DNA from: Nemertoderma westbladi
Lineage: Eukaryota; Animalia; Xenacoelomorpha
Direction of reading: 5' to 3'
Assembly: GCA_032718475.1 (NCBI GenBank)
Contig: JAUCBJ010001619.1
Location: 1 to 42,835 of the forward strand
Length of the DNA stretch: 42,835 nucleotides
Shown piece after piece: positions 2,610-36,317 of this stretch. A model generated the notes under the pieces. It worked only from the letters and a program-made list of their open reading frames with translations, searched no databases and was not told the DNA's origin. Position numbers and translations under genes: made by a program. How positions within the stretch are numbered: position 1 is the stretch's first letter; each line of letters opens with the position of its first letter.

Positions 2610-4020
2610 GTAAGTGATTTGTGTTGAATCAGTTGGCCTGTGTGTTAAACTGTATAATTTTGAGTTATTAGAGTATAGTTTTGAGTTTTGTTATACTTAA
2701 CACCGTCAGTTTAGCTTTGCGGTATTTCGGATATTTAGGATAGTACCCGTAGTACGTAGAATAAAGGAAAATGTGGGTCGAGCCAAATGATTGGATATGT
2801 TATCCATTTCAGGTATAATCTTTTAAAGGAGAGTGACTTCACTATCTTACACCAGTTACGTTTGAAATAATATTTAATTTCGCCAATTTATTTAATAAAA
2901 ATTTTCTTTACAAAATCATAATTTTTAATTTTTAATTCATAATACTTAATAGTAATCATAATTGTAAAGAAGATATTTCAATTGTATTAACCATGTATAT
3001 TGCATGTACAGTGTTGTAGCTTTTCTTTTCAAAAGCAGAACAATTAGGCCTAAGCTGATATAATACCTACATATTACGTTGCATATTTTTACAGCCCAGA
3101 ACATTATATTTCACAAGAGGACGACAGTCAACATATCTTATTCATTGTATCTGTGCATTTTATATTACGGCAACCTCAGAAACAAATACTGTATATAATT
3201 TATAATAAATATTAAGTGATCCCGCGCTAAGACAACTAATTGGTTATACCGGTAGAGGCAACAAACGCAATTTGCAATAATTTTTGAATGATGTGGATGA
3301 TAATTTTTAATATTAATGAAAAACAACATAAATTAATATGGTATACATTTTTGTTTTTATCATGAATCGTTTCGAATCGTTTCTTTTTTGAAATATTACT
3401 TTTTACATATTATAGTATTTTTCGTCCCACCAGACAAGCAGCAAAAATGATAGACGCGTCACCACGAATGATTTTTATCGAGTTGTATCGTGATCGGCGA
3501 CCTTAAAAACCGGCATAGCTTAATTACCAAATCAAAGGCAAGGTTTAACTGTTTGTAATTGTTTGCTACTTGTACTTTTCGTTCTGGAGCACCAGAACGG
3601 CACCAAAATTAGCTTTGCATTATCAGAAATATTTATGAATAGTTTCATCGTGATCAGAGACCTCGATAATCCGTATACCTTCAAAATTATCAAACCAAAC
3701 ACAAAATGTTTCAGTTTCAAATTATTTTATTTACAGTACTTGTACTTTTCGTCCTGGGGGACCAAAATAGCACCAAAAATGATGGTCACATTGCCAGAAA
3801 ATATTTTTATCAAGTTTTATCGTGATCAGCGACCTCAAAAACCCTTATACCATTAAAATTTTGTTTTTTGAGCCAATATCTAAAATGACCCCCACCCCCC
3901 GGGCTAATTACGGTGTGAAATAGACCGGGCCAGATAGGGTTAAGAACATGTGCCAACTACTACAACTGCCACTAACAAGTAAACAATCGGCTGAAGCCGG
4001 AGGCGAACCGAAGGCGAAAC

Positions 4021-5460
4021 TCCTATCTGCTACCCGAAGGTAGGGGTGGGCGCTATTCCTATCTGCTACCCGAAGGTAGGGGTGGCCGCTACTCCTATCT
4101 GCTACCCGAAGGTAGGGGTGGGCGCTACTCCTATCTGCTACCCGAGGGTCGGGGTGGGCGCTACTTCTATCTGCTACCCGAAGGTAGGGGTGGGTGCTAC
4201 TCCTATCTGCTACCCGAAGGTAGGGGTGGGCGCTACTCCTATCGCTACCCGAGGGTCGGGGTGGGCGCTACTCCTATCTGCTACCCGAGGGTCGGGGTGG
4301 GCGCTACTCCTATCTGCTACCCGAGGGTAGGGGTGGGCGCTACTCCTATCGCTACCCGAGGGTCGGGGTGGGCGCTACTCCTATCTGCTACCCGAGGGTC
4401 GGGGTGGGCGCTAATCCTATCTGCTACCCGAGGGTCGGGGTGGGCGCTACCATATCTGCTACCCGAAGGTAGGGGTGGGCGCTACTCCTATCTGCTACCC
4501 GAAGGTAGGGGTGGGCGCTACTCCTATCTGCTACCCGAAGGTAGGGGTGGGCGCTACTCCTATCTGCTACCCGATGGTCGGGGTGGGCGCTACCATATCT
4601 GCTACCCGAAGGTAGGGGTGGGCGCTACTCCTATCTGCTACCCGAGGGTCGGGGTGGGCGCTACTCCTATCTGCTACCCGAGGGTAGGGGTGGGCGCTAC
4701 TCCTATCTGCTACCCGATGGTAGGGGTGGGCGCTACTCCTATCTGCTACCCGAAGGTAGGGGTGGGCGCTACTCCTATCTGCTACCCGAGGGTCAGGGTG
4801 GGCGCTACTCCTATCTGCTACCCGATGGTCGGGGTGGGCGCTACCATATCTGCTACCCGAAGGTAGGGGTGGGCGCTACTCCTATCTGCTACCCGAAGGT
4901 AGGAGTGGGCGCTACTCCTATCTGCTATCCGAAGGTAGGGGTGGGCGCTACTCCTATCTGCTACCCGAATACAGGGGTAGGCGCTACTCCTATCTGCTAC
5001 CCGAAGGTAGGGGAGTGCGCTACTCCAATCTGCTACCCGAAGGTAGGGGTGGGCGCTACTCCTATCTGCTACCCGTAGGTAGAGGTGGGTGATATTCCTA
5101 TCTGCTACCCGAAGGTAGGGGTGGGCGCTACTCCTGTCTGCTACCCGAAGGTAGGAGTGGACGCTACGCCTATCTGCTACCCGAGGGTAGGGGTGGGCGC
5201 TACTCCTATCTGCTACCCGAAGGTAGGGGTGGGTGCTACTCCTATCTGCTACCCGAAGGTAGGGGTGGGCGCTACTCCTATCTGCTACCCGAAGATAGGG
5301 GTGGGCGCTACTCCTATCTGCTACCCAAAGGTAGGGGTGGGCGCTACTCCTATCTGCTACCCGAAGGTAGGGGTGGGCGCTACTCATATCTCTACCCTAA
5401 GGTAGGGGTGGGTGCTACTCATATCTGCTACCCGAAGGTAGGGGTGGGCGCTACTCCTAT
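4021..5460. repeat. 36-bp minisatellite, about 40 copies (CCTATCTGCTACCCGAAGGTAGGGGTGGGCGCTACT)
   Basis: Directly visible tandem repeat with a few shortened units. Each unit contains a CTACC-CGAA-GGTAG hairpin. Confidence 0.97.
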
Positions 5461-5560
5461 CGACTCCAAGGGATGATACGGCTGAGTGAACCCTGGTGAG
5501 AATCGAACCTACAACCAATAGATTGGAGTCCCGGCGCTCAACGAAATCAGCTAAACTAGG
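5461..5560 (-). mobile_element. tRNA-derived SINE head
   Basis: Minus strand reads TAGCTGATTTCGTTGAGCG (A-box-like) ... GGTTCGATTC (B box), then GGTTCACTCAGCCGTATCATCCCTTGGAGTCGATA, which resembles a conserved SINE central segment. Confidence 0.65.
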
Positions 5561-7177: not shown

Positions 7178-8938
7178 ATGAAATCGTCTGCTAAACTGAG
7201 TAAAAAGACAAAAGTTGGCGTAACAGGGTTAGAGAGTTTAGAGTCTGGCCAATGGTTTGAAGAGGATGGAGTTTGGGCATATAAAGAGTACACTGGGTCA
7301 GAGAAGCAGCGCCTTCCTCCCCATCTCTTATACAGACAGGATATCAAATCCGGGTACGAAACATCTTTACCGAGCATATCTCTCGTATGCGCGCGTAGCC
7401 AATACAAAACAGCCCACAAACTGCACGTGAAGCTCTACAACGAATTTAGGAGGAAGTCAACAATCGTTTATTTTGATAACGATGAGTCGTATTTATTAAC
7501 TTTGGAAGAATTTTCCACAAAGTTTATGTCTTGGTTGCGCTGGCAAAAGAAGCTGTCTGTTGATACAGTTGTGTTGTTGGTGAGTGAGGAATTAGCGGAC
7601 TGCAAAGGGAAAGGTCTTAAAAGGGTTGTAGATCTTGTGCCAACACTTAAGAAGAGTATTAATGAAGTTAATAAGAATGAGGGAAGATTGAGTGATATTG
7701 AAGATTGTAATCCTCCGACATTCATTGATTTGGTGTTAAAAGCCGCGAGGTACACTATCCTTGTAGAAATGGATCCGCCAGCTAGCAGTCAGCATCTTTG
7801 GCTATCAGCGTTTATGAATGGTAGACAGACTACAACTATTAAAGCCCCGGGCCCAGAGTTTTTGGAATCAGCGAGCAAAATTAACGAGTTCTTATTGAAA
7901 ATATATCCTCAAGTTTCTCAACCTTGTCTAACATATTTGGTGGAAATCGAACCGAAATTACAATTCTTTAACTCGGATAAACAGATTGAGGATGAAATCA
8001 TCGATGTTGTTTTAGAGATATTTGGAACAAAATTTATGAGTGGAAGAGTCCCGTTAAACATTTTACCAAGCGAAGACCATATCGTAAACGACCAGGAATC
8101 CACCGCCTTCCGCTTAGACCTCGGTAACCTTGGCGACGACATACTAAACATAATATTGACCATTACTGTTCCGGAATCATCCGCCCCTATACATATTGAG
8201 ACTCTGCAATTAATCGATATTATCCGTAACAAGACCACCGTATTTGTCGTAAACAGCACGTTCAATGCCAACCATCAAAATGTTTGTATATATCCAATCC
8301 CTAGCGACAACCTCAATTATAAGTTAGTGTTCTTAGGGGATCCCGGATCTGGAAAAACAAGCATCATATCTAAGTACACTAAAGGCACAGCAGTAGAACA
8401 AAAAATATACAGACCATCCATTGGAGTTGGTTATAAGGCTGTCGACTTTTCCAGAGAAGATGGAGACGTGACGTTAATGATTTACGACACGGCAGGCAGT
8501 GAGAAAAGGAATGACTCAAGCGGTGTGTTTATGCTGCTGACAAAGCAATACTACAGCGGAATTTTACGTTATTCTTCCTGTGTGGTTCTAGTAGTCGATA
8601 TATCGACACAATCCAACATAGACTTTGCAAGAAATATAGATTATTGGACGAACACTATCAAGAGTTACGCCCCAGAAGGGACTTTTATTTTAGTTATCGG
8701 CAACAAATCGGATGTTTCTAGACCACAAGATGAGATTGATATACTACGTAAGATCTGCATGCGAGAGAGGATTGGGTTCATTCCAGTTAGCGCCGTTACC
8801 GGATCGGCTATCCGAGACATGTTTCGCACGATTGTAGATGTACTGGTGGACAGGAAAGTTAGAAGCAGATATCAAAGCAAACTGATTCCCTCGGAAATTC
8901 TATCAAAAGGACCCCAGACTGTATCGGCGTATAACGAG
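7178..8938 (+). CDS. Rab-Roc-COR-TIR gene exon 1: unassigned N-terminus, PLAT/LH2-like domain (~7930-8295), Rab/Ras-like GTPase (~8315-8855), pre-Roc linker
   Basis: First ATG at 7178. Motifs G1 GDPGSGKT, G2 YRPSIG, G3 YDTAGSE, G4 GNKSD, G5 VSAVTG. Ends IPSEILSKGPQTVSAYNE (typical pre-Roc helix) at donor GTTGGT. Confidence 0.88.
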
Positions 8939-9534
8939 GTTGGTTAGGAATTCGTTAGATTTTAGATCATATATCAAGGATGGGGCGGGATTAGTTAGAT
9001 TTGTAAGATAATGCACTATTAGGGGTCATTCAAGTATTACCGTCATCACTTGTCGGTGGGTGGGTGGGTTTCGGCTGGTTGATGACCAATGCTTATTATT
9101 TTACTTATACTTATACTATATGCCAATACTTATCCGTTGGTTAATTTAATGCCTCCTCCTCATATACATTTTTACTTTTTACATTATACAGCTAAATGGT
9201 TTCACAATATTAAAATTAATTACAAACAGGGAACATTGCTTAAATTTACAATGTATTCTGATAAAATTCCGTAATCTAAACTAGATCTGAGTCAAATTTA
9301 AAAGCATCACATAATGTAAAAACCTATAAAATGCTATGAAATTTTCAAATTAATTAAAAATTATGCGAAATAAAATATGTAAAATGTTACCCAATGAAAG
9401 TTCGCTGTTACTCTGAAGCTGAGGTCATTTCCCAACTCTAATTTCCACAGCCGTAACGAGTGTAAATGTTTAATGGCCATCACCATTGCAAAATAATCCA
9501 AAAAATAACTTTAAATTTGTTTTTTCTTCACCAG

Positions 9535-9771
9535 GCCTGTCGTAATGGGGTGAAGCCGGTATATCGAACCAGATTAATGCTCGTGGGACAGGATAGGGCG
9601 GGTAAAACAAGCGTTAAAAGGGCGTTGCTGCAGCAACCATTTAATTCCAATGAGATATCCACAGACGGAATAGACGTGACAACCGAATTCACTGTTGCCA
9701 TAACAGAATCGATGTCATGGAAACAGTCAATGGATAAATTTAATAGAGATGTATCAACCACCAATATAAAG
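9535..9771 (+). CDS. Rab-Roc-COR-TIR gene exon 2: Roc P-loop and switch I
   Basis: Acceptor TTTTTCTTCACCAG, donor GTAAGA. RTRLMLVGQDRAGKTS and STDGID are Roc motifs. Phase 0/0. Confidence 0.92.
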
Positions 9772-9917
9772 GTAAGAAATTTAACTTAGGAAATATTAGT
9801 GTTTATTTCGATAACTAAGAAATTAATTGATCCCGATCTCTTATAAGTAGACATGATGATGTAATGGGACAGTCTCTCTCCCCCATAGAATGTAACAACT
9901 AATGCAACGTTGTTACA

Positions 9918-10418
9918 CTACCGTTTATGTATTCCAAGTTGAGTTGCGCAAACGGGACAGAAATGATGAACATCTTTAAAATCTTTCGCACACAACGGTA
10001 TTAAACAACAACACAAACAGAATCCAAAAATACAGCAAAGGCACGTTGAGTACCAACTGAGGTCCCCGTGTTTATACTGGACAGTGGTCTTTACTTTACA
10101 GTTACAATACGGGCAGGCTAACACCACTGGCTTATCGCCTAAGTAAGCCACCGCTCCTATTGGCTGGCTGGCAATCCCTTCATGGCTGACCTTGTAGGAT
10201 GTGGATGGAGGTACGGTAATGGGTGGGTGGCATTTATTGTCTGCGGTGAGCACTGGGGCTACAATTAAATTATTATTGGTTGGTATTAATGGAGCTTTTA
10301 TATCACTGGTTGATAAAAGTTGGTCTTTCATACCATTAGTTGTTAATAGCAATGAGTCTTTTTGGTCTTCGTCTGCTAGTTCTAGATGTTTTTTGGCTGC
10401 AGCTGTATTATAGTACAT
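9918..10418 (-). CDS. LITAF-domain (zf-LITAF-like) protein, coding region intronless, nested antisense in intron 2 of the Roco gene
   Basis: CPYC ... hydrophobic Cys-rich stretch CLCCIFGFCLCCCLIP ... KDVHHFCPVC...LG is the LITAF/SIMPLE signature. Confidence 0.92.
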   Translation of the reverse strand: MYYNTAAAKKHLELADEDQKDSLLLTTNGMKDQLLSTSDIKAPLIPTNNNLIVAPVLTADNKCHPPITVPPSTSYKVSHEGIASQPIGAVAYLGDKPVVLACPYCNCKVKTTVQYKHGDLSWYSTCLCCIFGFCLCCCLIPLCAKDFKDVHHFCPVCATQLGIHKR

Positions 10419-11910
10419 TCAGAAGTTGAATATTATACAATGAGAATATTTTGATTCAATCCGGTTCACATATGAATAATAGAAAATGGTGACTTCATTA
10501 TTTTAAAGGTCAGTGATAAATTCAAATAATATATACATTCATAAATAAGTAATTCAATAATACATATTTGGGATTGTTTACCAATTCTATTAAAAAGATT
10601 TGGGATTGATTAATTCCAGTACAAATTACTGATAATTAATAAATTAATATATTTGATATTTGTTCAATTTAAATTATAATTTATGTTAAATCAAATATCA
10701 TATTTTTGACGAATTCGAATATACATTTTGTAAATACATTATATTTTTAACTCAATTGAGAGTAATACAGCTGCATAAAATTCCAGAACACATTGGCCAG
10801 TTGAAATAATAATTATACAATGAAAATATTTATGTGAATTGGGTTGCCTTGTGTGTTAATTAGTAATGACATTAACGATATTGACAATTAATAACCACTA
10901 TATCCAGCATATCACATTTAATAATAATATGTCCCTGATAGCTATTAAATATCCCATATAATATACAGTGCATAATGTTTTAAGAACTACAGTACAACAT
11001 AATAATAATAATCCGTAGCTACACTAAGAATTCGCAAGCATTACTAATTTTTTCTTATAACAATATTCTAGAACAATAATTTTTTGAAGATACAATTTGG
11101 TAAATGTCACAGCGACATCTAATAGTCAAGTTAATCTAGCCAAAAAATGGTGTAAACCCACAACATATTCGAAATTCATCCAAACCTATTTTTTTATTCT
11201 ACATTACTTTGTTAATACCTCCAAAAATCTATAAAAATATATTATGCTGATCACTTTCAATTTCCGGTTTCTTTCCTTAGCAACATGGATTTTACATAGC
11301 AACAAGGGGTCTATTGATGGGATTTTCTCCAAATTTGGTACAGACAAACTTTACTCTAATGACTATCGATTGACAGAAGTATTCACTTCTATATAATTAC
11401 CAATTTAGTTTCCAGAGCAACGGAAATTTGTCTAATTATTTAACTATTTTTAATACCAATTTTGCTGGAACAATATAACGACCTTATTTACACAACTTCT
11501 CTACTAAACGGGTGGATGTAACCTCGCCCATCGGATTTATCGACCTCAAAAACCCTTATCCCCAAAAAATTATATGATATATTATATTATATACTGTTGT
11601 GGGTTTTAAACAAAAACAAATAAATAAATTACACCTAAAATCAATAAGACAATCACAATTTTATTATGTGAAAAATCTTCTCTAATAATAAATCTATAAT
11701 AAATATAATAATAATAATAAATCTAATATGAAAAATCTTCTCTAATATAACATGAAATGAAATTATAAAATTTCCTTAAAGTGGAATTGTCTAAATTTTT
11801 TCAACAGTTATTATATTAATATATCCTGAAATATATTTAAAAATTGGATGCGACTTCTAGTTACCGAGATACACCGAGATAGCAACCAATCTGTAACTCG
11901 CCAGTGTAAA

Positions 11911-13160
11911 TATTGGACGGATCCATCATGGATGTTGGACGGATCCATCATGGATGTATAACGGAGCCATCATGGATGTTGGACGGATCCATCATGGATG
12001 TTTAACGGAGCCATCATGGATGTTGGACGGATCCATCATGGATGTTGGACGGATCCATCATGGATGTTGGACGGATCCATCATGGATGTTGGACGGATCC
12101 ATCATGGATGTTGGACGGATCCATCATGGATGTTGGACGGATCCATCATGGATGTTGGACGGGTCCATCATGGATGTTGGACGGATCCATCATGGATGTT
12201 GGACGGATCCATCATGGATGTTGGACGGATCCATCATGGATGTTGGACGGATCCATCATGGATGTTGGACGGATCCATCATGGATGTTGGACGGATCCAT
12301 CATGGATGTTGGACGGATCCATCATGGATGTTGGACGGATCCATCATGGATGTTGGACGGATCCATCATGGATGTTGGACGGATCCATCATGGATGTTGG
12401 ACGGATCCATCATGGATGTTGGACGGATCCATCATGGATGTTGGACGGATCCATCATGGATGTTGGACGGATCCATCATGGATGTTGGACGTATCCATCA
12501 TGGATGTTGGACGGATCCATCATGGATGTTGGACGGATCCATCATGGATGTTGGACGGATCCCTCATGGATGTTGGACGGATCCATAATGGATGTTGGAC
12601 GGATCCATCATGGATGTTGGACGGATCCATCATGGATGTTGGACGGATCCATCATGGATGTCCTTATTTCTCACGCGTGTTTGTTTGTTTGTGTGTTTGT
12701 TTGTTTGTACACACAATTTCTGTCACTTAATGTTGATGGATTTGGATAAACTTTGATATAGGTTCATTATCGGACCTACTTGTGTATGCAAGGTTTTGGT
12801 TGCTAGGGACCTGTTGGTTGCCTAGCAACAGTGAAATTATTTCTAGAATGACCGATCATAATCGTAGAATTCATCTCAATCAAAGTTCTGTCGACACCCC
12901 ATGGGGAGCATCTATTGGACATGCTTTCTGCAAAATTTCGCTTTATTTCGTTCAGAATGGTAGGAGAAGATAAATATATACTTACATACAGTGTTTATTT
13001 TACATACAATATATACTACTATTGTGTACTTCGCCCAATGTTTGGTTTTGCGTTTTTCGTTATTAGACTGCCCTGCAAATTCGCGTATATTATTACAACA
13101 ATATTGGTAGCAATGGATCCGTCCATTATTGTAAGCTTGTGCAAGCTTGTATTACTCATT
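11911..13160 (+). mobile_element. Helentron-like non-autonomous element (HINE/DINE-1-type structure)
   Basis: 5' hairpin containing subTIR TGGACGGATCCAT, (GTTT/GT)n microsatellite at ~12677-12708, inverted subTIR ATGGATCCGTCCA at 13113-13125, then 3' stem-loop AAGCTT-GTGC-AAGCTT. Confidence 0.65.
11913..12660. repeat. 22-bp tandem repeat, about 34 copies (TTGGACGGATCCATCATGGATG)
   Basis: Directly visible, near-perfect. The unit contains the hairpin ATCCA-TCA-TGGAT. Confidence 0.97.
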
Positions 13161-13787
13161 TCCCATTGAATCACAGCTTATTGTTAAATAAATTAAATTA
13201 TTCTGCAACATTAGTAATTTGCCGCTTACTCTTGTGGCAAATTTCTTTGTTTGGCTTGTGTTATGCAAATTCACGCAGAATTTCCTTGAATAAACCAAGG
13301 ACTTCTAGAATAAACATATTATGATTCTCAAAATATAATTTTATAGACTTTTTTGGGCATTAACGAGGTAATATAGAATCCAAAATATGTGGTTCGGATT
13401 GATTACGAAATACTTATGGGTTTTTTCTAGATTGACTCGACTATAAGGAAATCTCCGAGAATGTAAATAAAAGCGAGTCATCCTATATGATTTCATATTA
13501 TTTTGCAAATTAATTTTTAATGTAGAACTCCGAAACTGTTTATAAGCCGATCTTGTTGATAAATCGTAGTAACAAATTAAATTTTAGATTAATATATTGA
13601 AGAAATGTGAATGTAGAGTGAATCGGACGAACACTGTATTTATATATTATTATATTTCATACTATATGTTTTTCCCGGAAAATTCATTTTTGGTTCCCTT
13701 TAGGATAAAAAAGCGCACAATATTACATGAATACATTTAACAGAACTGAATTTCTTTAATACTTATGTTGTTATTATATCGCTCTAG

Positions 13788-14090
13788 AGAAACTATACTT
13801 TACAGGCAGAATATTACGCACGTATCGCCAATCATATCGTCTCTAAACTCGAAGAACAGAAGGCAGCACTTCTAAGCGACGAGGCTGACAATAGACCCGA
13901 AAACAAGTTGGATTCCAACATGGAGCGGATACCTGAATCGGGTGACGAAACCACAGAATCCGTGAAAGATAATAAGCAAACACCCGAGCAAGCGGTTATA
14001 GAAGGAAGTCAGTTATCTGACAATGTTATGAAGCGTGGTTATGACAACGCTGATGTAACTAAACGAAGGCGGCGTAGCAATGAGATTGAG
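13788..14090 (+). CDS. Rab-Roc-COR-TIR gene exon 3: charged insertion within Roc
   Basis: Acceptor CTCTAG (alternative in-frame TTTACAG gives start 13806), donor GTAAAG. Open frame RNYTLQAEYYARIANHIVSKLEEQK...SNEIE. Phase 0/0. Confidence 0.75.
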
Positions 14091-14180
14091 GTAAAGTTGA
14101 ATACACAGGTTATTGTCACGAGTAATACAACGTTAGTTAACCTTCTCGTTATAGGCCTAATGTTAAATGTTCCATTTTTT

Positions 14181-14444
14181 TGGGGGTGGGGTGGCAAAGG
14201 GGGCTGATAAAGGGGGTGGTGGCAAAGGGGGCTGATAAAGGGGGTGATGGCAAAGGGGGGTGGGGTGGCAAAGGGGGTGGTAAAGGGGGTGGCAAAGGGG
14301 GTGGCAAAGGGGGAGTGGGAAAGGGGGAGTGGGGGTAGCAAAGGGGTTGGGGTGCAAAGGGTGGTTGTAGAGGGGGGTGGGTGGTGGCAAAGGGGGGTGG
14401 GCTGGGTGTCGCAAAGGGAGGAGGGGGGGGGGGGGGGGGGGGGG
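14181..14444 (+). repeat. G-rich degenerate ~12-bp repeat (GGGGGTGGCAAA) plus poly-G
   Basis: Many consecutive G runs, so G-quadruplex potential. Confidence 0.8.
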
Positions 14445-14590
14445 AATTGAGTAAAGAAAATTTAGAGTAAAGAAATGAACAAGTGCGGCGTTTTCTAATA
14501 TATTATGTGTGTAATTATGGGTCGCAATTGTCAATGATATACAATGATACAATGATATTTATCAATGATATACATTACATCTTTTTATCT

Positions 14591-14743
14591 GGATCCGGAC
14601 AATGGCGACCCGGACAATTGCGACCCGGTCAATTGCGACCCATCAATGTTTTCTAAAATCATGGGTCGCAATTGACCGGGTCGCAATTGTCCGGGTCGCA
14701 ATTGTCCGGGTCGCAATTGTCCAGGTCGCAATTGTCCTAACAT
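14591..14743. repeat. Foldback/MITE-like inverted array of 15-bp units GGACAATTGCGACCC / GGGTCGCAATTGTCC
   Basis: Three units on the left and five reverse-complement units on the right. No TSD found. Confidence 0.65.
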
Positions 14744-15964
14744 GTAGTTCGACATAGGTATTCTGTGTAAATTTTAATATTTACTCTCAACTATCATGTT
14801 CAACCTGCATTCAAGGAACTTCAAAGTATATATTTTTGAGTGCAAATTATTTCAATACAAAACTCTAAGCAGAAGAAACATAGCATATGAAAAATTGTTG
14901 TAAAAACAGTGAAATATTTGTAGGCCTATACAGCCTGATATTTGGAGGTAGTTAATCGAAACTAACGTGATATTCATAAACCTTATTACCAACCGTAATG
15001 ATTAGTAGGCTGAGATTGGCCCCGCAATCGTTGATCAATTTCATTAGTTTCAGGTTCAACATTTTTGTAAAGTTACTAGATTAATTAGCTTTCAGGGTCA
15101 CTGCTTTCCCTTCTAGCTCAGAGGTCCCGTGTTCGATTCGGGATCGAGTCAGTTACAATCTCCTAACTGGCATGCCCTCCATCGTTATTGGAACATGGCT
15201 GGAACATTTTGGTCCAAAATATGTCGAAATTTTTTTTATGGTCTATTATAATGCACCATTGAATGGTGTTTCCAAATCTGAAAACCGCTATTTAATAGCT
15301 CTTTTAGTTTTCAAGTTATCACAATTTCCATTTAGGGATTCCTATTGAAATTACTATTACTATGTATAAGGCAAGGTCGATTATCTCCAAATATTTTTTT
15401 TATGAAATTGTCAACTTCAAAACCCTACTACTACTACAATTTTTGAGCAATTAGTCTGAATCTTTCTGTGGGTGTCTACATAGCCAACCTGCATAAAATC
15501 ATCAGACAACTTTTCGAAATTTTTTGTTAATAAAATTTAATACTATTTATAACAAACCTAAAAATTTGCATAAATTTGCAGCGCCATCTAGCGGTGCAGA
15601 ATTATTTTCACAAAATTTCACCTGATAGTTATGTTGCCCCATCTTTGATCTATCATATAAAAAAACTTTCATGTGATTAGTTTCAAAACTGTAAAAGCCT
15701 TAGGGTTTTAAGCGTAACCAAGTTTTTTTTATTGTTAACTAGTATTAACTAATATTAAATAGCGAAAAAATTTTTTTTCTGAGCTGTCATGTAGAATAGC
15801 ATCTTAGGCACCTATATTCCAAATTTAAGCCAAAACCAAACAATTTTGAAAAGCTGAGAGTGATAAATCGAGGAGTTGTCCGAAAATGGTGTACCCCCCC
15901 CCCCCCCCCCCCCCTTAAGTAATGTTGAAATGTTAGAATAATAACCATTATTGTTTTTCTTTAG

Positions 15965-16179
15965 AATGATCTTATTAAGGCTGCTTACAGCGGCATTGAA
16001 GAAAAACTAGAAGAAGCAGATATTCCTGAAGAAGTTATTGAAATAGTGAAAAATAGATTAAATAATCCTCAGACTATAATTGAATCAGAGGATTCTACTG
16101 GTAAACTGAGTTTAAGTATTTGGGACTTCGCAGGGCAGTCTATATATTACACAACCCATCAGGTCTTCTTAACTCACAG
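15965..16179 (+). CDS. Rab-Roc-COR-TIR gene exon 4: Roc G3/switch II (absent from the ORF track)
   Basis: Acceptor TTTTTCTTTAG, donor GTAAGA. Translates ...LSLSIWDFAGQSIYYTTHQVFLTH, the Roc hallmark. Phase 0/2. Confidence 0.93.
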
Positions 16180-16581
16180 GTAAGAATGAAATACTTAGTT
16201 GTTACTGATAATTGGATCTATTAGTTAACAGAATGAACATCGGCTTTGGCGAATTATATTCTTGCATTTTATTTGTTTAAACAGTTGTTACCTCAAGGAA
16301 CAGTTCATTTCAGTGATTTCAAAGTGTACGTCGTTTAATAATATTAATATTAAAATATACCACCCTGAGGGGTAAATCTCAATGACAGGAATTTTACATT
16401 AGGATAGACATTAGATTCGAATTTCACTTAGAAAATTGAGTTGAGTGTTAAGTTGAAGCGAGAATGGCATGATATATGGGAATTGTACAAATTAGCTACG
16501 GTATATTATATTCTGTAAGCACTCAATCGGTGAGGCATTCTTACTGGCTAGGCTTTAAACGATGTGCTTTTCAATTTCTAG

Positions 16582-18073
16582 GGCTATTTATTTACTGGTC
16601 TTCAATCTCGAAGATAATTTAAAATCGCCCGCCAAAACTTTATTAAGGAGACAAATAATGGGCAACGATGCTGACCCAACCAGTGTTTTCGGATATCACG
16701 AGTTTTCCAATCTAGAGTTCATAAGTTTCTGGATGAATTCAATTTACGCATTCGCCGCTAAAAATCAACATAATTCTCAATATGGGGAGATTTGTTGGAA
16801 GTCAACAAACCCACCGGTATTCCTAGTTGGTACCCATAGAGGAAGTTTGCACCAAGACAAAGATATACAGTTCCAATTAGCTAAGAAAAAGTTTGCTGAA
16901 ATTATAGAACATGTTGCAGATAAACCGTATAGCGGACATTTCATACCCCGCTGCTATGCAGTGGAGAACTCTCTTGATGGCTTGGATGATGAGGTAATTA
17001 AACTACGGGAACACATCGAGGAAGTGGCTATGAAACAACCATATATGGGAGAAATGGTGCCCGTCAATTGGCTTCGATTTGAGGAATTTTTGAGCAATCA
17101 TTTACACAAAGGATCTAATTATATTTCTGTCGATGAAATAGAAATTGAGGCTAAAAGACTTAATTTTTATAACAAAGAATCCTTCAATACAATGTTAAGT
17201 TTCTATCACGATTTGGGAAGTTTGGTCCATTACAGTGAAGCGGGTGATAGCCAATACTTACAACGGTTGGTAATACTGAATCCGTGTTGGTTGATTGACG
17301 TATTCAAGAAGGTGATAACAATTGCTGACATCGACGACCAATGGCCATTGCTGCAGTCCAGCTGGACCAAATTAGACTCAAGAGGATTGCTGGAAGAACC
17401 TCTCTTGAATCATATGTGGTCTCAACATCTGGAGCAAAAAGATTCTCTTATCGCCTTAATGGAGAAATTTGACCTTCTTTGCGAACAAATACCTGTTAAG
17501 GACAAAAGAAATTTAGTAAATAAAACTGTTTTGAGAACATATTACGTTCCCACTCGCTTGAAACCCTGCAAAGATGTTAGTTTCCACAAAGCCACAAGCA
17601 ATGACATATCTTTGTACATAGTGTTCGATGGCTTTCTACCTGAAGGTCTGTACAATAGATTGATTATCCGAGCTATAAGATGGAGTCAGGGTAGAGGCGG
17701 ATCTCAACCTAGACTACACCACAGACGGGTTCGCCTTTATTACGACCAAGAACACGATTTTATATTAGTCATGGAGCCGATAAAATTTTCTCGCATCAAA
17801 CTCAATATACTCCGAATCAACGTACAAGGAATCCCTTGCACAAATACAACTGGGGACCAAAATCTCAACCCAAATCCAAGAGCTATTCTCGAAATTCGTC
17901 ACTTTTTAGACGTCAGTTTAAAAGAGTTGCGTATAAATTGGATGAGGAATGTATCATTTTCATGGAAAGTTATTTGTCAGTGTAACCAGGGATGCTCTTT
18001 ACATGATAACGCGCATTGCACGGAGGATGACTGCTTGCATTTCTTGGATTTCAACGATTGTTTAGAAAAAGAT
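16582..18073 (+). CDS. Rab-Roc-COR-TIR gene exon 5: rest of Roc, COR domain, Cys/His motif
   Basis: RAIYLLVFNL, PVFLVGTH, MGEMVPVNWLRFE, MLSFYHDLG, VILNPCWLIDVFKKVIT, LMEKFDLLC, YYVP, LPEGLYNRLI are COR motifs. Acceptor TTTCTAG, donor GTAAGT. Confidence 0.93.
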
Positions 18074-18451
18074 GTAAGTTTTAAATTCTTAGGTAACTAC
18101 ATCCAATCTCTTAAAGATTGCTTAACATCGTAAATGCATAAAATCGTGTACATAAACTCTTGACTATGACTGAAACAGTAAACCGATACATGCAGAACTG
18201 TCTCAAATATTATTAAACAATGGTTTTTCAGTTATATGGATTAGACTTAGGAGGGCAGTATTATTCTTGAGCTAAATATCAACTAGAAATAAAAACCAGC
18301 ACTGTAATGAAGGGGATTTAGGACTGGATGGGAAGATAGGCCGCACATACCTTTCACATAATTATGTTAATATCATGATAATTAAAAAATAAATAAGAAA
18401 TCATATAACAGAGATATAATAATTCTCTATATAATCGTTATTTATATGAAG

Positions 18452-18707
18452 GTGATGCAATGCGTCTATCACCAGCGTACATCAACTAAACATTACCACT
18501 CATGGAATCCGCAAGCATTAATTAACCAACTTTGTGGCGGACCACATAGCGAAGTACATGACACCTCAGTACCCATGAAAGAGACGAACAAAGTCGAGAC
18601 AACGAGTGATCCTGAACTGGCTGTTGAGTCTCCAGAGATTTTTATTAGTTACAACTGGAATATCCAGAACAGCGTGAAGGAATTAAAACAATTTCTGGAA
18701 TTACAAG
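18452..18707 (+). CDS. Rab-Roc-COR-TIR gene exon 6: linker and TIR start
   Basis: Ends EIFISYNWNIQNSVKELKQFLELQ-G (TIR box 1). Donor GTGAGT, phase 0/1. Confidence 0.88.
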
Positions 18708-19389
18708 GTGAGTCTAAACTTAGACAGTTTCTTGACAGTAGGCCGACTTTATTAATTAATAAGATGACATAGGAGTAATCGATATTATAGGTTAATATAT
18801 AATTAGTGGCCTAATATATTATTTTCCATTTTGTTAGTACAGTGAGGACGAGGACTAACACTGCAGGAATGTAAGACATTCGGTGGTACCGATATTTATA
18901 AGCCCCGTAATGGTATGAAACGTCTAACCTGTAGCCCACCTGAGTTCGATTCGGAGTTATGCCGATTTCACATAGATGTGATTATAATAATTATTTAGGT
19001 TCTACAGTATAGGTGTCAGTGCATATAGAAACCAGCCGATTTCGGGCTGAATTCATTTTGGAAAATAGGGAATATAAAGTTAAAAAATAAATTTTTTTCA
19101 AAATTTTTTTTTTCAAAATATGTTCATTAGTTATGTTTATATTCATTGGACATACAAATTTTGATAAAATTATATGTTTTGTCGGTCTGTCCGTCTGTCA
19201 GTCTTATATGTCTATCATATTGTCTGTCCAATTATTCAATGATTCTTAAACATTAGTGAGGTTGGGCGGATTGAAATTATGGGGCTTTTCTGGTGGTCGC
19301 TGATTTCATTTCTGATGTCAGTTTTAATGTATGATGGATTCAAGATTGTTTTTTATGTCAGTCGAGTCGGACAACAGCTCGACTATGGG

Positions 19390-22000
19390 CTAGTATTGTG
19401 TCGTTATGTCACGTCCATGAAGACCGGCCCCGTCGCCACACCTCGCGAACCTCTTCATGGCGCTTAACTAAACCCCCTGACTTGCAGCTCAGTGCATGGG
19501 AGGTAGAGAACTCGCATGTTCGACTGTTCTCCACCGGGGTGCAGGGATGGCTTCCAGTACAGAATCCCATTTCTCTATAAAGGTTACTTCCAGTTCTTCC
19601 CTGGATTTCTTGAGTTCCTGTTTTAGTTGCAAGATGTGATCGGCGACTTGTAGGATTTGTACCGTGTAGGACTTGTAGGCGATTTCGAATCGCCTCTGAA
19701 ACTAAGACAGTGCCTTCGGTGGATGCTTGACGTGCCGGCACTCTTCTAATCAATGGATCCCGAAGTCCAATTCCTCTGTGTCGCGTTGGTAGTAAAAGCA
19801 ACTCCTCATCCATATCCCCAAGAACTGGAAACCCGAAAATGGCAGGTATGAAGTCGAGGAGGAGAGCCGTCCGGATTGGGGCGATTTGGTCTATGGTTGT
19901 AGGGATCACTCTCAGCAGGTAGTCCCATTCCGCTTGGACGCAGAGTGAGACCGCAGTATGCGCCAATTGTGGGTATTCCTTGGCTACTGCTGAAAGTTTA
20001 TGGACACTGTCCTTCCAACCTGCCGCCTTCTCGCTAATGTAGATGTTCCTTCCTGACTCAGCCCCTATGAAACCGCCCAAGAAACGACGTCCGGATACGA
20101 TCTGTACCCCTGTCTGGGCAAATAATTCCTGGGCCTCAACTTCAGGCTTAACAATCAGGAATGTTTTTGACGGCTCGGGAAAGTAACCAAGCATCGGACC
20201 AATCTCCATAAGTACTTCCCACCACTCACGAATACTGGCGAGTTTACCAGCCGATGTGGAGTCATCGGCATACCAACATTGGGTATGATCCCTGTGGTTC
20301 GGGTCCGGTTGTGGAGTAATAACTGGAGCCGATGGCTCCTAGCGATGGTTGAGCGGTACTGATTGTGGAGTCGGTGGGATGAAGTCTGTGGAAGACAGTG
20401 ACTGAGATCCAACTTCGCGCAGCTTCCTAACCAATGGTAGTGGTTGCGCATGCGCATGCGCAGGCGTAGCCAAACATGGCGGCTGGATCCCCTTGCGTCC
20501 AGCCCTCACTGCTCCACAGTGGATCGTTACTGCTGTGTAGGTAGAGTTCTGCGTGTCCGTTATAAGAGTTATATAAAAACCGAGATGCACGGTGCCATAG
20601 GACTCTGCAGTTCCAAAGAGAAAGTGGCCGACTCACTGAGTTAAATGCGTTTTTTGCGTCAACGAGAAGCATTGCTTGAGTTTCATCATCCTCGAATACA
20701 GCTGTCATTGCGTGGACTGCCGCTTCGATGCTGGCCTTTATTCCTGCACACAACTGGTCGGCGCCGCACTTCTGAATGAGATCAGCCTTGGTTACTTCCA
20801 TAAGGCAATTCGCTATAAGGCGGTACAGCACTTCAGGGATTCCAACGGCCGAACTCCGGGTAGTTTGTCGAGTGCCACTAAACGGCAGGCCCGCAGTGCC
20901 CGAATCTCTCCCCATGGTACAACCGTATTGGCCAGACAATGAGTCAATCCCGCTATGGCTTCCCGGAGCCTGGAGCTGTGACCTTCATACCTCGTTAGGA
21001 GTGCGCACCAAAACTCACATTCACCTCCAACCGGTCCTACGCCACTATGCAATGCTCTCGCGTTTTTCGAAACAAGCTGCCCAGTAATATCGATCCCTTT
21101 GAACTGCGGCAGGTCGGGACAGGGGTCTAGTGATTCCACCGGAACTTCCATCTGAGGTGGGTGTTTCTCCACCAGGACGTCTCTAACCGTGACACCAAGG
21201 GGTTTACCCTCTGCCTGCGCATTTGGATCAAAAACTCCGCCAGAATCCCGATCTGTCACTAACCTCACTGTGGCCCGGTTCATCCCCACGAGAATCTTTC
21301 GGATGAATAACCGTGCTGAATTATCAGCTGTGGAAACGCCTCTACTCGAAGGGAACTTCACTTTACAGTGCACCGACTCGGTGAGGAGGGGGTCGAACTC
21401 GCCACGCTCCCACATCTCAACACGCCTCAGTATCGTTCTCCTGATATCAGGACTCTTTACTACATCCGGGTCCCTCTGAAATGTTAAGGCGATGAAGCAC
21501 AGAGGGCGCTCTGAAGGGTGCTGACCCTGAGTAAGGCCTTCAATCTCCTGGGTGAGAACATCTATGACCTTACGCCCAGCATTGCCACCCGGAACCACAT
21601 ACCTCCTACTGGGTAACTGAGCCAGACGAGCATGTCTAGCTTCCCAAACAGGATCCATTGAGCTTCCAGGACCGTTAATCCACATGCCACCGAAGGCGGA
21701 CTCGAGGACCTCGGAAGTTGAGACAGGCGTTGAAGGTGACGACTCACGAGAACCTGCTACCAGAGAAGGGCCCGAGCTAGTGGGAAAAAGTTGGCCTGCG
21801 TTAATTCCAGCTGCCAAGCTTGCATTACTGTTTAGAGCGGCTGTTTGTGGGTTTAAACAGCTTCCTGACGACGACGGCGTGCAATTTGCACATGGGCGTT
21901 GCGCCCTGACACATCCACATCGACTGGTGGGGCTACATCCACTACTCACGCAGCCACAGCAGCGCTGTTAACTGAGCGACATTGGATCCTGGTTGTTAAC
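19390..22000 (-). mobile_element. Decayed CRE-clade-like non-LTR retrotransposon (RT with frameshifts and stops, 3' endonuclease region missing)
   Basis: Cys-rich N-terminus (CCGC..RCGC..CANC.P...C.N), then ACRLVALDKLPGVRP, CGADQLCAG, LLVDAKNAFNS, TQGDP, QCWYADDS (~20257-20280) and GYFPEPSKT spread over several frames. Probable original ATG at 21982 with an early stop. GC-rich relative to flanks. Confidence 0.88.
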
Positions 22001-22129
22001 AGTACAACGTAATTTATTGCAGTATTTGTCAAATCGAAATATCAGTAGGCCTAATCTTACGGACATCTACAGAGACTGTGAAAATAATTACATATTTGTT
22101 GCTATTATTATCATATGTCTATTGCTTAG

Positions 22130-22331
22130 GATTCACTTGTTGGATGGATGTGGGACAAATGGGTGGAGGAGATAGACTATTCTCTCGCATCGATCAGGGC
22201 ATAACCAACTCACAGGTCGTTGTCCCTTGCGTTACGCGATCCTATCTTGCGTCGAGATTCTGCGTTGCCGAAACACTATTAGCGTTCGAACGCAGAAAAA
22301 TGATATGCCCAGTGATATTTGAGGACATGAG
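22130..22331 (+). CDS. Rab-Roc-COR-TIR gene exon 7: TIR core
   Basis: GFTCWMDVGQMGGGDRLFSRIDQGITNSQVVVPCVTRSYLASRFCVAE...ICPVIFE (TIR_2-type). Acceptor TTGCTTAG, donor GTAAAT, phase 1/2. Confidence 0.92.
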
Positions 22332-22486
22332 GTAAATTTACCCAACCCATCCAATCCACAAGTTTAACATATTTAAATTACATAAACTAAGCATGTAAGA
22401 GCTACATTAACTTATAACAGAACATATTAGTATAGTTCCTCTATAAACGTAATATTTGTCTTATGAAATTTAAACTTATATTCTAG

Positions 22487-22802
22487 AACTCAATGTTGGC
22501 CTCCGTCCGGAGACCTTGCTGTCCCTTTTACAGGGACGATCTACCTCGATTACACGACAGTTTGTGAAGGACACGATAAACGAGGTTCGTCATCACATGG
22601 ATTAAACGAGTTTGTGGACCGACTCAGAATATATCTTGATCATAAAAACTCAGGAATAAATAAGAGTAGCACAGTGGAAGGGAATAATGGTAGAGATGAT
22701 ACTCAGGGTACGAATAAACTACATCGATACTCTGAGTTTGAAGAAGAACTAGAATTAAAAATTGACCCGAAAATTACAACCAAATGTTGTGTTATTCTTT
22801 AA
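22487..22802 (+). CDS. Rab-Roc-COR-TIR gene exon 8: TIR end and CaaX tail
   Basis: Acceptor TTCTAG. Reads TQCWPPSGDLAVPFTGTIYLDY...KITTKCCVIL*. AATAAA signals near 22904 and 22993. Confidence 0.9.
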
Positions 22803-27083: not shown

Positions 27084-30000
27084 ACTACTTAGGGCTTAAT
27101 GTCCTGATCCTATGTTTTTTTTGTTAGATTAAGGGGTGTAAGACTTCAGTGTTTAACCATTTATTATATTTATATACCACCAAGCCCCATTAGTCAGTAT
27201 GTCGGTACTTTCAATTATCACATTATGAAGTGAAGCAGAATTCCGACAATTACTGCAAATTGTAAAATCTAATATATTTTTTATACTGTGTGTGTTTGCC
27301 CCAGCAACCTACCAGTTTTCCAATGGTATCACTGATTTACTTACTGTATAGGGTTCCAATGTTCTGTGGTCTGATGTCTGTTTGGGATAGGTGGTAACAG
27401 AGTTCATGGTGCGATTTTTTAGGTCAATGGTGCAATATAGATAGGCTTTGGGTAATCCTTTGTCCAGCTGATGAGGTGTCGAGATTACCGCGTACTGGGT
27501 CTCAGACACCGAAACGCAACCATATTTTTGATAAAATTAATTATTTTTGCTTGAGTTCTACCCCTTTACGGCGACAAAATGTCATATATTTTTCTATGGA
27601 ATATAGGCTTAGCTATTGTGCAGTATACTACCGGTATCATTTAGTGTATGGCGGTTAGGTTAGGGTTAGGGAGCGATACATACCTGTATGTTGAGCATGT
27701 TTCAATATATTTGTTTATGTCGTTTTTTTTTGTATTATTTTGTGTCGTTTTTTTTTGATGGCCTTAGGGCTAAGTACTACTTAGGGCTTAATGTCCTGAT
27801 CCTATGTTTTTTTTGTTAGATTAAGGGGTGTAAGACTTCAGTGTTTAACCATTTATTATATTTATATACCACCAAGCCCCATTAGTCAGTATGTCGGTAC
27901 TTTCAATTATCACATTATGAAGTGAAGCAGAATTCCGACAATTACTGCAAATTGTAAAATCTAATATATTTTTTATACTGTGTGTGTTTGCCCCAGCAAC
28001 CTACCAGTTTTCCAATGGTATCACTGATTTACTTACTGTATAGGGTTCCAATGTTCTGTGGTCTGATGTCTGTTTGGGATAGGTGGTAACAGAGTTCATG
28101 GTGCGATTTTTTAGGTCAATGGTGCAATATAGATAGGCTTTGGGTAATCCTTTGTCCAGCTGATGAGGTGTCGAGATTACCGCGTACTGGGTCTCAGACA
28201 CCGAAACGCAACCATATTTTTGATAAAATTAATTATTTTTGCTTGAGTTCTACCCCTTTACGGCGACAAAATGTCATATATTTTTCTATGGAATATAGGC
28301 TTAGCTATTGTGCAGTATACTACCGGTATCATTTAGTGTATGGCGGTTAGGTTAGGGTTAGGGAGCGATACATACCTGTATGTTGAGCATGTTTCAATAT
28401 ATTTGTTTATGTCGTTTTTTTTTGTATTATTTTGTGTCGTTTTTTTTTTGATGGCCTTAGGGCTAAGTACTACTTAGGGCTTAATGTCCTGATCCTATGT
28501 TTTTTTTGTTAGATTAAGGGGTGTAAGACTTCAGTGTTTAACCATTTATTATATTTATATACCACCAAGCCCCATTAGTCAGTATGTCGGTACTTTCAAT
28601 TATCACATTATGAAGTGAAGCAGAATTCCGACAATTACTGCAAATTGTAAAATCTAATATATTTTTTATACTGTGTGTGTTTGCCCCAGCAACCTACCAG
28701 TTTTCCAATGGTATCACTGATTTACTTACTGTATAGGGTTCCAATGTTCTGTGGTCTGATGTCTGTTTGGGATAGGTGGTAACAGAGTTCATGGTGCGAT
28801 TTTTTAGGTCAATGGTGCAATATAGATAGGCTTTGGGTAATCCTTTGTCCAGCTGATGAGGTGTCGAGATTACCGCGTACTGGGTCTCAGACACCGAAAC
28901 GCAACCATATTTTTGATAAAATTAATTATTTTTGCTTGAGTTCTACCCCTTTACGGCGACAAAATGTCATATATTTTTCTATGGAATATAGGCTTAGCTA
29001 TTGTGCAGTATACTACCGGTATCATTTAGTGTATGGCGGTTAGGTTAGGGTTAGGGAGCGATACATACCTGTATGTTGAGCATGTTTCAATATATTTGTT
29101 TATGTCGTTTTTTTTTGTATTATTTTGTGTCGTTTTTTTTTGATGGCCTTAGGGCTAAGTACTACTTAGGGCTTAATGTCCTGATCCTATGTTTTTTTTT
29201 TTGTTAGATTAAGGGGTGTAAGACTTCAGTGTTTAACCATTTATTATATTTATATACCACCAAGCCCCATTAGTCAGTATGTCGGTACTTTCAATTATCA
29301 CATTATGAAGTGAAGCAGAATTCCGACAATTACTGCAAATTGTAAAATCTAATATATTTTTTATACTGTGTGTGTTTGCCCCAGCAACCTACCAGTTTTC
29401 CAATGGTATCACTGATTTACTTACTGTATAGGGTTCCAATGTTCTGTGGTCTGATGTCTGTTTGGGATAGGTGGTAACAGAGTTCATGGTGCGATTTTTT
29501 AGGTCAATGGTGCAATATAGATAGGCTTTGGGTAATCCTTTGTCCAGCTGATGAGGTGTCGAGATTACCGCGTACTGGGTCTCAGACACCGAAACGCAAC
29601 CATATTTTTGATAAAATTAATTATTTTTGCTTGAGTTCTACCCCTTTACGGCGACAAAATGTCATATATTTTTCTATGGAATATAGGCTTAGCTATTGTG
29701 CAGTATACTACCGGTATCATTTAGTGTATGGCGGTTAGGTTAGGGTTAGGGAGCGATACATACCTGTATGTTGAGCATGTTTCAATATATTTGTTTATGT
29801 CGTTTTTTTTTGTATTATTTTGTGTCGTTTTTTTTTGATGGCCTTAGGGCTAAGTACTACTTAGGGCTTAATGTCCTGATCCTATGTTTTTTTTGTTAGA
29901 TTAAGGGGTGTAAGACTTCAGTGTTTAACCATTTATTATATTTATATACCACCAAGCCCCATTAGTCAGTATGTCGGTACTTTCAATTATCACATTATGA

Positions 30001-32712: not shown

Positions 32713-33010
32713 TAATATATTGTATGTTATGGAGGGGGGCATGCATGGCGGGAATTGGGGGGTAAGAGGAATGTATGGGGTGTAATACAGGTTGGGAACA
32801 GCTAGCAGCTGTGAAGATTATTAGAGGTAACAGCTGTGAATTTATAGATTTAACATTAACTTTAATAAAATGATAAAAATACTGATAAACAATACTAATA
32901 ATATAATAACTAATGAATATTAATACTGATAAACATTATCGAATAAACCTCAAATTAACCAAGAATACAAAAATTACATCACTTAAAATTTTTTTTACGT
33001 GGTTGAAAAC

Positions 33011-35244: not shown

Positions 35245-36317
35245 CATGGTCATGGTCATGGTCATGGTCATGGTCTTGGTCATGGTCATGGTCATGGTCA
35301 TGGTCATGGTCATGGTCATGGTCATGGTCAAGGTCATGGTCAAGGTCATGGTCATGGTCATGGTCATGGTCATGGTCATGGTCATGGTCATGGTCATGGT
35401 CATGGTCATGGTCATGGTCATGGTCATGGTCATGGTCATGGTCATGGTCATGGTCATGGTCATGGTCATGGTCATGGTCATGGTCATGGTCATGGTCATG
35501 GTCATGGTCATGGTCATGGTCATGGTCATGGTCATGGTCATGGTCATGGTCATGGTCATGGTCATGGTCATGGTCATGGTCATGGTCATGGTCATGGTCA
35601 TGGTCATGGTCATGGTCATGGTCATGGTCATGGTCATGGTCATGGTCATGGTCATGGTCATGGTCATGGTCATGGTCATGGTCATGGTCATGGTCATGGT
35701 CATGGTCATGGTCATGGTCATGGTCACGGTCACGGTCACGGTCACGGTCACGGTCACGGTCACGGTCACGGTCACGGTCACGGTCACGGTCACGGTCACG
35801 GTCACGGTCACGGTCACGGTCACGGTCACGGTCACGGTCACGGTCACGGTCACGGTCACGGTCACGGTCACGGTCACGGTCACGGTCACGGTCACGGTCA
35901 CGGTCACGGTCACGGTCACGGTCACGGTCACGGTCACGGTCATGGTCATGGTCATGGTCATGGTCATGGTCATGGTCATGGTCATGGTCATGGTCATGGT
36001 CATGGTCATGGTCATGGTCATGGTCATGGTCATGGTCATGGTCATGGTCATGGTCATGGTCATGGTCATGGTCATGGTCATGGTCATGGTCATGGTCATG
36101 GTCATGGTCATGGTCATGGTCATGGTCATGGTCATGGTCATGGTCATGGTCATGGTCATGGTCATGGTCATGGTCATGGTCATGGTCATGGTCATGGTCA
36201 TGGTCATGGTCATGGTCATGGTCATGGTCATGGTCATGGTCATGGTCATGGTCATGGTCATGGTCATGGTCATGGTCATGGTCATGGTCATGGTCATGGT
36301 CATGGTCATGGTCATGG
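35245..36317. repeat. Hexamer microsatellite (GGTCAT)n, about 179 units, with a central (GGTCAC)36 block
   Basis: Directly visible. Variant block at 35722-35937. Confidence 0.98.

Follow-up and report, generated by a model that had tools for sequence, protein, structure and literature searches.

The 42,835-nucleotide contig JAUCBJ010001619.1 of the xenacoelomorph Nemertoderma westbladi (assembly GCA_032718475.1; positions 1 to 42,835 of the forward strand, the whole of which we refer to as the window) holds a predicted Roco gene at 7178-22802, the product of which joins two GTPase domains, one Rab-like and one Roc, to COR, TIR and a C-terminal CaaX motif in one chain. The gene very probably derives from an invertebrate family with the domain order NHR-Roc-COR-Death-TIR-CaaX, the Neuralized (NHR) domain of which has given way to three others, namely an alpha/beta domain, a likely PLAT domain and a Rab-like G domain; the Death domain has been lost. 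The combination of a small GTPase with Roc-COR arose several times, a single origin being rejected, and such a two-GTPase Roco layout is both recurrent and already in print.

A single chain predicted from eight exons

The coding sequence was spliced in silico from eight exons on the plus strand, all introns being of the GT-AG type with matching phases, and the resulting 4782 nt translate into 1593 residues, the only stop being the terminal one, which confirms the exon coordinates, AG/GT ends, phases and length that an earlier note on this DNA had proposed. Exon 1 (7178-8938, residues 1-587) encodes the alpha/beta domain, the PLAT-like domain, the Rab-like G domain and the first half of the helix that precedes Roc (the pre-Roc helix). 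The rest of this helix, the Roc P-loop (9586-9609) and G2 follow in exon 2 (9535-9771), and exon 3 (13788-14090) supplies a long insert separating Roc G2 and G3, with a first helix that is common to the family. The end of the insert and Roc G3 (16121-16138) are found in exon 4 (15965-16179), while the large exon 5 (16582-18073) covers Roc G4 and G5, COR-A (17060-17515), a COR-B-like region (17603-18007) and a Cys/His-rich end. Exon 6 (18452-18707) comprises a short linker devoid of a Death domain and the start of TIR (18632), exon 7 (22130-22331) the TIR core with the predicted catalytic Glu1469 (22270-22272), and exon 8 (22487-22802) the end of TIR, a tail, the CaaX motif (22788-22799) with an adjacent Cys, and the stop, 3' of which AATAAA hexamers are present at 22904 and 22993. 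No transmembrane helix was detected in the spliced protein (top hydropathy window 1.54), and no exact match to three unspliced open reading frames (ORFs) of the window was present in the protein collection.

The junction of exons 1 and 2 was assessed using a profile that was built, without the query, from the pre-Roc/Roc segments of 83 homologues. The splice 8938/9535 reaches 101-102 bits on this profile, compared to 76 for exon 2 alone, 79 for exon 2 extended upstream in its own frame and 75-80 for eight alternative in-frame GT donors. Furthermore, 34 residues separate the PxEI motif from the P-loop, a distance that is equal in 74 of the 77 measurable homologues, and the sole pre-Roc-helix match in a six-frame search of the window is located at 8885-8938 (+), the last 54 nt of exon 1. 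The gain of about 25 bits and the family spacing bear out the proposal that the tail of exon 1 is a pre-Roc helix resumed in exon 2, and the exon chain together with the per-exon Pfam matches below does the same for the overall order of Rab-like, Roc-COR and TIR in one chain. Two details of the earlier note require revision. The apparently stand-alone Rab ORF was given as 597 residues, which is wrong, as the read-through from the ATG is 589 residues and the stretch from stop to stop 600. Similarly, two sets of G-box motifs are indeed present, but not about 40 residues apart, the end of the Ras domain and the Roc P-loop being separated by 48. We consider the single-chain gene model, predicted from splicing, to be correct in all probability.

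Probable descent from an invertebrate Roco family

A search with exon 5 recovered 60 proteins of 871-2485 residues, the top six of which are all of the Roc-COR-Death-TIR type (five of them with Neuralized). These six, with an identity of 38-42%, belong to crinoids, molluscs and a nemertean, and members from rotifers rank next at 29-30%. An added search contributed further members from sea urchins, a brittle star and a lancelet, and their architecture was rechecked. In a tree of 30 rows, picked out of one with 59, the Roc-COR of the query is the sister of the NHR-Roc-COR-Death-TIR-CaaX family with a support of 100/98, and nesting of the query in the deuterostome or in the protostome members was not rejected by the approximately unbiased (AU) test (p-AU 0.128 each). 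A CaaX end is shared by the query and all 22 relatives whose TIR is complete, but by none of 80 further proteins longer than 800 residues, six of which are relatives whose records end inside TIR. Across the family (P0001-P0006, P0070-P0079 and others), the terminus is a conserved CxxCaaL in all 22 complete records.

With members such as those from Antedon (P0001), Amphiura (P0070) and Branchiostoma (P0076), the query has in common the insert between G2 and G3, the type of TIR with its catalytic Glu, the CaaX end and a Roc-COR that is up to 44% identical in trimmed columns, whereas a single Cys accompanies the CaaX motif, as opposed to the CxxC of the family. In addition, some 560 residues of alpha/beta, PLAT-like and Rab-like domains are present instead of NHR, and Death is missing. 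Pfam detected no NHR in the query, and the NHR profile of the family was without match in six frames of the window; likewise, the Death profile matched neither the query protein nor the window, and the distance from the COR-end motif to TIR is 77 residues, compared to 152-166 in 22 relatives. NHR or Death exons hidden in the window were dismissed on the basis of these profile searches. The loss of Death had been overlooked in the earlier note, which had also positioned the Rab domain where leucine-rich repeats (LRRs) normally sit, a slot that holds Neuralized in the closest relatives.

The domain ahead of the pre-Roc helix is highly variable among the 60 exon 5 matches (NHR, TPR, ANK, NACHT, SH2/SH3, Macro, CARD and others, as taken from precomputed Pfam lists), as would be expected of an input slot. 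About forty architectures of animal Rocos are mentioned in PMC11378527, and PMC5094078 mentions the NHR-type architecture for the centipede Strigamia and the oyster Crassostrea. The NHR-Roc-COR-Death-TIR family with its conserved CaaX is widespread in invertebrates, and no functional study of it was found in the literature searched, the coverage of which leaves out most subscription papers.

Two GTPase domains of different type

The first G domain (8318-8848, +; residues 381-557) was delineated through Pfam, PDB matches and alignment. Pfam Ras is matched at residues 382-554 (E 3.4e-20, per-exon scan), and the 60 best rows of 735 PDB matches are all of the Rab/Ypt type, at 46.7-52.4 bits and with no clear subfamily. 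It is placed outside the Roc clade (support 100/99), on a long branch of 1.25, while the second G domain falls within it. Because of the Rab-type PDB matches and this placement, the first G domain is not a Roc duplicate, and a Roc duplication was ruled out as its origin. G1 and G4 are intact, G2 has a Thr-to-Ser exchange and G3 reads DTAGS, i.e. the catalytic Gln is replaced by Ser, and an insertion is present in switch II. The domain is not stand-alone, helix 5 continuing into the pre-Roc helix, and the read-through ORF of exon 1 ends without Cys and hence without a prenylated tail of the Rab type. Judged from these sequence features, the N-terminal G domain is Rab-like, not a Rab.

By comparison, all five motifs of the Roc domain are intact (G1 at residue 605, G2 at 629, G3 at 820, G4 at 921 and G5 at 965), with Pfam Roc pieces in exons 2 and 4 at 28 bits each (cut-off 27). 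COR-A follows at 64.3 bits (cut-off 35.3, E 1.5e-17), and COR-B stays below its cut-off (17.3 bits against 27). TIR_2 is matched in exon 7 (E 4.6e-11), and the query TIR is 39-60% identical to the TIRs of 28 relatives. Glu1469, positioned after the alphaC Cys, aligns with a Glu of Cat1, and the catalytic Glu is present in 26 of 32 alignment rows; with this Glu in place, the TIR may be of the catalytic type, which would act as an NADase or form cyclic ADP-ribose (cADPR). The chain terminates in CCVIL, a CaaX-Leu with a neighbouring Cys, in agreement with the C-terminal membrane anchor proposed previously and common to the relatives.

Ahead of the Rab-like domain, residues 62-247 (7361-7918, +) form an alpha/beta domain with alternating strands and helices, as suggested by a low-confidence model and weak alpha/beta fold rows. 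A TIR or SEFIR resemblance of this domain, noted by eye, was not confirmed: hhalign to the family TIR gave 0.2%, and no library match was obtained. Residues 251-372 (7928-8293, +) likely constitute a degenerate PLAT/LH2 domain, as indicated by fold searches of a single-sequence model (pLDDT, the predicted local distance difference test score, 35). Nine of the ten top VIA rows among 48,161 chains are PLAT-bearing (Z 4.5-6.5), the best with Z 6.5 and a root mean square deviation of 5.2 over 115 aligned residues, and the top six Foldseek rows are PLAT bearers as well, at non-significant E values of 0.09-0.49. The bearers among the VIA rows are lipoxygenases, lipoprotein lipase, polycystin-1, Rab6IP1 and the C-domain of clostridial alpha-toxin. 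Pfam scans of the query gave no match to PLAT, and the PLAT-like call of the earlier note hence stands at the level of fold, through a low-confidence model, but not at the level of profile. The single-sequence models are generally poor (pLDDT 36 and 35), that of exon 1 returning weak Rab matches in Foldseek and only generic alpha/beta folds in VIA. A match of residues 328-370 to the STIV capsid fell below the cut-off and was dismissed as a chance beta-strand match.

As a side observation, the captured cassette including the Rab-like domain is one intron-free exon of 1.76 kb (7178-8938), which would fit arrival as a retrocopy; large exons are also present in other genes of the window.

Recurrent fusion of small GTPases to Roc-COR

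The unbiased exon 5 search returned a tandem GTPase in 3 of 60 matches, and after the search had been steered to such proteins the count was 7 of 107 Roc-bearing proteins. Amphiura has a Ral-like form (P0012, 61% identical to free Amphiura Ral) and a Cdc42-like form (P0062), each with Roc-COR, and Mercenaria a Rab8-like form with Roc-COR-Death (P0054 and its paralogue P0048). The chytrid Nowakowskiella contributes two Ras-like proteins with Roc-COR-TIR (P0100 and P0101; KAJ1569476.1 and KAJ1562077.1), and Paramoeba a protein that is Rap-like by eye and has ANK and LRR between the G domain and Roc (P0106). A TIR match is absent in five of these seven. Grouping of the query Roc-COR with Mercenaria (p-AU 9.7e-8), with Amphiura (p-AU 5.6e-34) or with the chytrid proteins (p-AU 0.014) was rejected, as was a group of all tandem proteins together (p-AU 6.8e-44), in quick LG+G4 trees with a long chytrid branch and with Paramoeba left out.

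The Mercenaria and Amphiura fusions resemble the query in that the GTPase is located just before the pre-Roc helix and has lost the catalytic Gln, but they lack TIR and CaaX, belong to separate Roc-COR clades and have a G domain only 20-24% identical to that of the query. The chytrid proteins share the order small GTPase, Roc, COR-A and TIR_2, with 45-63 residues from the end of Ras to the Roc P-loop compared to 48 in the query, but their GTPase is Ras/R-Ras2-like, they are without the PLAT region and CaaX, and their Roc-COR is distant. They lie on contigs of 3.8 and 4.2 kb, and contamination is possible; a statement in PMC4104024 that fungi are without Roco genes is at odds with them.

The same source (Civiero et al. 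2014, PMC4104024) describes at least three Trichoplax proteins in which a Ras-like domain precedes Roc, together with a model that was left untested; TRIADDRAFT_62404, 62498 and 57945, which we compared by description only, are like the query in having the Ras-like domain ahead of Roc in one chain. The earlier note knew of no description of the architecture; a Ras-like domain before Roc-COR is, however, published for three Trichoplax proteins and now found in seven more. PLAT-like, Rab-like, Roc-COR, TIR and CaaX were found together neither in the protein searches nor in the literature, within the coverage given above. Among other proteins with tandem GTPases, Miro is without Roc-COR or TIR. 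This is also true for EhRabX3 and the p190RhoGAP pseudoGTPases, portrayed as proteins with more than one G domain per chain, some of them degenerate. That degenerate small GTPases were captured several times, and independently, at one junction is a pattern that extends beyond the 2014 report on Trichoplax.

Proposed mechanism and alternatives

Our favoured reading, to which we assign a little less than an even chance, is that of a lipid-anchored Roc-COR switch with the Rab-like domain as input and TIR as enzymatic output. The CaaX-Leu end would be geranylgeranylated and the neighbouring Cys may be palmitoylated, with PLAT perhaps adding a lipid contact. As the catalytic Gln is exchanged to Ser, the Rab-like domain would bind GTP, hydrolyze it poorly and be held mostly in the loaded state. 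The trigger would be a microbial factor that targets Rabs and binds or modifies this domain, or else the host's own Rab regulators, acting where a membrane is disturbed. A monomer-dimer cycle has been proposed for Roco proteins, and the change at the Rab-like domain would be passed via the pre-Roc helix to Roc-COR, shifting this cycle, clustering the TIR domains and leading to cleavage of NAD+ to cADPR-type signals. Gating of Roc-COR by the other GTPase, as put forward in the earlier note, is plausible in this light.

Aspects of such a mechanism have counterparts elsewhere. Rab29 is described as recruiting and activating LRRK2 in trans at membranes (PMC6337361), and LRRK2 and LRRK1 with Rab29 thereby resemble the query in Roc-COR core and Rab-linked membrane activation, but the Rab acts in trans through ANK/ARM, the output is a kinase, and TIR and CaaX are missing. 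PMC8195603 interprets bacterial Roc-COR proteins, the effectors of which vary, as switches directed against invaders, and in a recent preprint 12 of 61 animal TIRs were active, yielding mostly cADPR products, with Roc and COR named in the legend of the figure on active TIRs (bioRxiv 10.64898/2026.04.20.719644). How Rab and N-terminal regions control the Roc-COR cycle in LRRK2-type proteins is an unsolved question, and with a small GTPase, Roc-COR and an enzymatic TIR in one molecule the coupling would be directly measurable via the NAD+ products.

A more specific proposal, which we regard as rather unlikely at present, is that small GTPases (Rab, Ral, Cdc42, Ras or Rap) were taken up by Roc-COR proteins again and again, on at least five separate occasions in animals, an amoeba and a chytrid, to serve as integrated decoys, and that the query is a complete one-chain receptor, which baits Rab-targeting microbial effectors and has a TIR that makes cADPR or destroys NAD+. 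None of the eight fused domains retains all four canonical motifs and the catalytic Gln is missing in seven, the query included, compared to 60 of 60 free Ral proteins with all four, a control that consists of Ral only. Guarding of host small GTPases has a precedent in animals, where pyrin senses Rho inactivation, as outlined in PMC12802187. If true, the decoy would represent a small-GTPase guard on a Roco scaffold, outside of NLRs and pyrin, and the recurrent capture makes it a testable hypothesis.

Several observations weigh against the input-module mechanism, the decoy or the gene model beneath them. The motif comparison has an exception in P0101, the fused domain of which retains the catalytic Gln, and Rap and Rab24 are naturally without it. 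The relatives give the impression of a conserved family, not of one that has expanded and evolves fast, and this is a poorer fit to a receptor arms race. No relatives of exon 1 were found among proteins of 1029-2935 residues, in the Atlas or in metagenome contigs, nor any of residues 1-378 among 1.84 billion representatives; with no close relative of exon 1, selection on the cassette is not measurable. Moreover, the PLAT call rests on a model with a pLDDT of 35. The exon 1 donor, GAG|GTTGGT, is by eye the least consensus-like among the seven donors, and intron 1 holds poly(A)-like hexamers, with AATAAA at 9369, from which it follows that a short isoform ending in intron 1 may exist beside the full chain, as far as the sequence can tell. 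Finally, 49 of the 61 animal TIRs in the preprint above (bioRxiv 10.64898/2026.04.20.719644) showed no activity, and the Glu is no proof of activity.

The input role of the Rab-like domain competes with an unlikely alternative, where the GTP-loaded domain is merely an address label that would attach to effectors or tethers of Rabs and set the compartment together with PLAT and CaaX, Roc-COR and TIR being switched otherwise. PLAT, Rab and CaaX each serve to target proteins to membranes, and the intact G1 and G4 are in line with this idea, as is the reported recruitment of LRRK2 to membranes by Rab29 (PMC6337361). However, the switch II insertion and the mere 47-52 bits to the closest PDB Rabs make it likely that ordinary effector surfaces are altered, and the CaaX anchor is shared by relatives without any Rab.

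We deem it improbable that the roles are those put forward for the Trichoplax proteins (Civiero et al.; PMC4104024), with Roc-COR as a nucleotide-dependent dimeriser and the Ras-like domain as signalling output. The five other tandem proteins without a TIR match are compatible with this, but the query already has a conserved output domain in its TIR with the catalytic Glu, the Rab-like domain sits in the former place of NHR, and loss of the catalytic Gln is ill-suited to a switch output. The likelihood is also low that TIR is a MyD88-like adaptor scaffold rather than an enzyme, with the Rab-like domain as a passive, drifting spacer. PMC9334734 lists a Roco with Death and TIR from Aplysia as MyD88-like, and the 49 TIRs without observed activity (bioRxiv 10.64898/2026.04.20.719644) as well as the long Rab-like branch would agree with such a role; on the other hand, the lost Death domain is the kinase-recruiting half of a MyD88-type adaptor, and the Rab-like domain has kept G1, G4 and its fold pattern. 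Least probable, despite the weak-looking donor of exon 1 and the poly(A)-like hexamers, is a separation into two genes, with exon 1 ending at TAG 8947 and exons 2-8 having another or no first exon, or a dead chimera, given that exon 2 completes the half-helix of exon 1 at family spacing with a gain of roughly 25 bits, that the window is without an NHR exon or a second pre-Roc helix, that 1593 codons are stop-free, and that the GC content at third codon positions in exon 1 (0.43) compares with 0.44 and 0.43 in exons 2 and 3.

Other features of the window

Two introns of the Roco gene contain further elements. Intron 2 holds a LITAF-like single-ORF gene in antisense orientation (9918-10418, minus strand, 166 residues; Pfam zf-LITAF-like, E 3.6e-19) and a tandem array of 34 units of 22 bp (11913-12661). 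Remnants of a broken non-LTR (long terminal repeat) retroelement occupy 19409-21967 of the minus strand in intron 6, with reverse-transcriptase-like motifs distributed over shifted frames, two of which were scanned using Pfam with no match. Upstream of the gene, a 36 bp unit is repeated 40 times (4019-5461). Downstream, a unit of roughly 692 bp is present in approximately eight tandem copies, more than 99% identical, over 27084-32720, followed by a single-exon ORF for a galactose-3-O-sulfotransferase (32987-34249, plus strand; Pfam E 6.2e-48) and an array of 179 CATGGT units (35245-36317). Past the latter, the end of an ORF with Cys pairs (about 36350-36832, plus strand) resembles, by eye only, the tail of a retroelement of the GIY-YIG/Penelope type.

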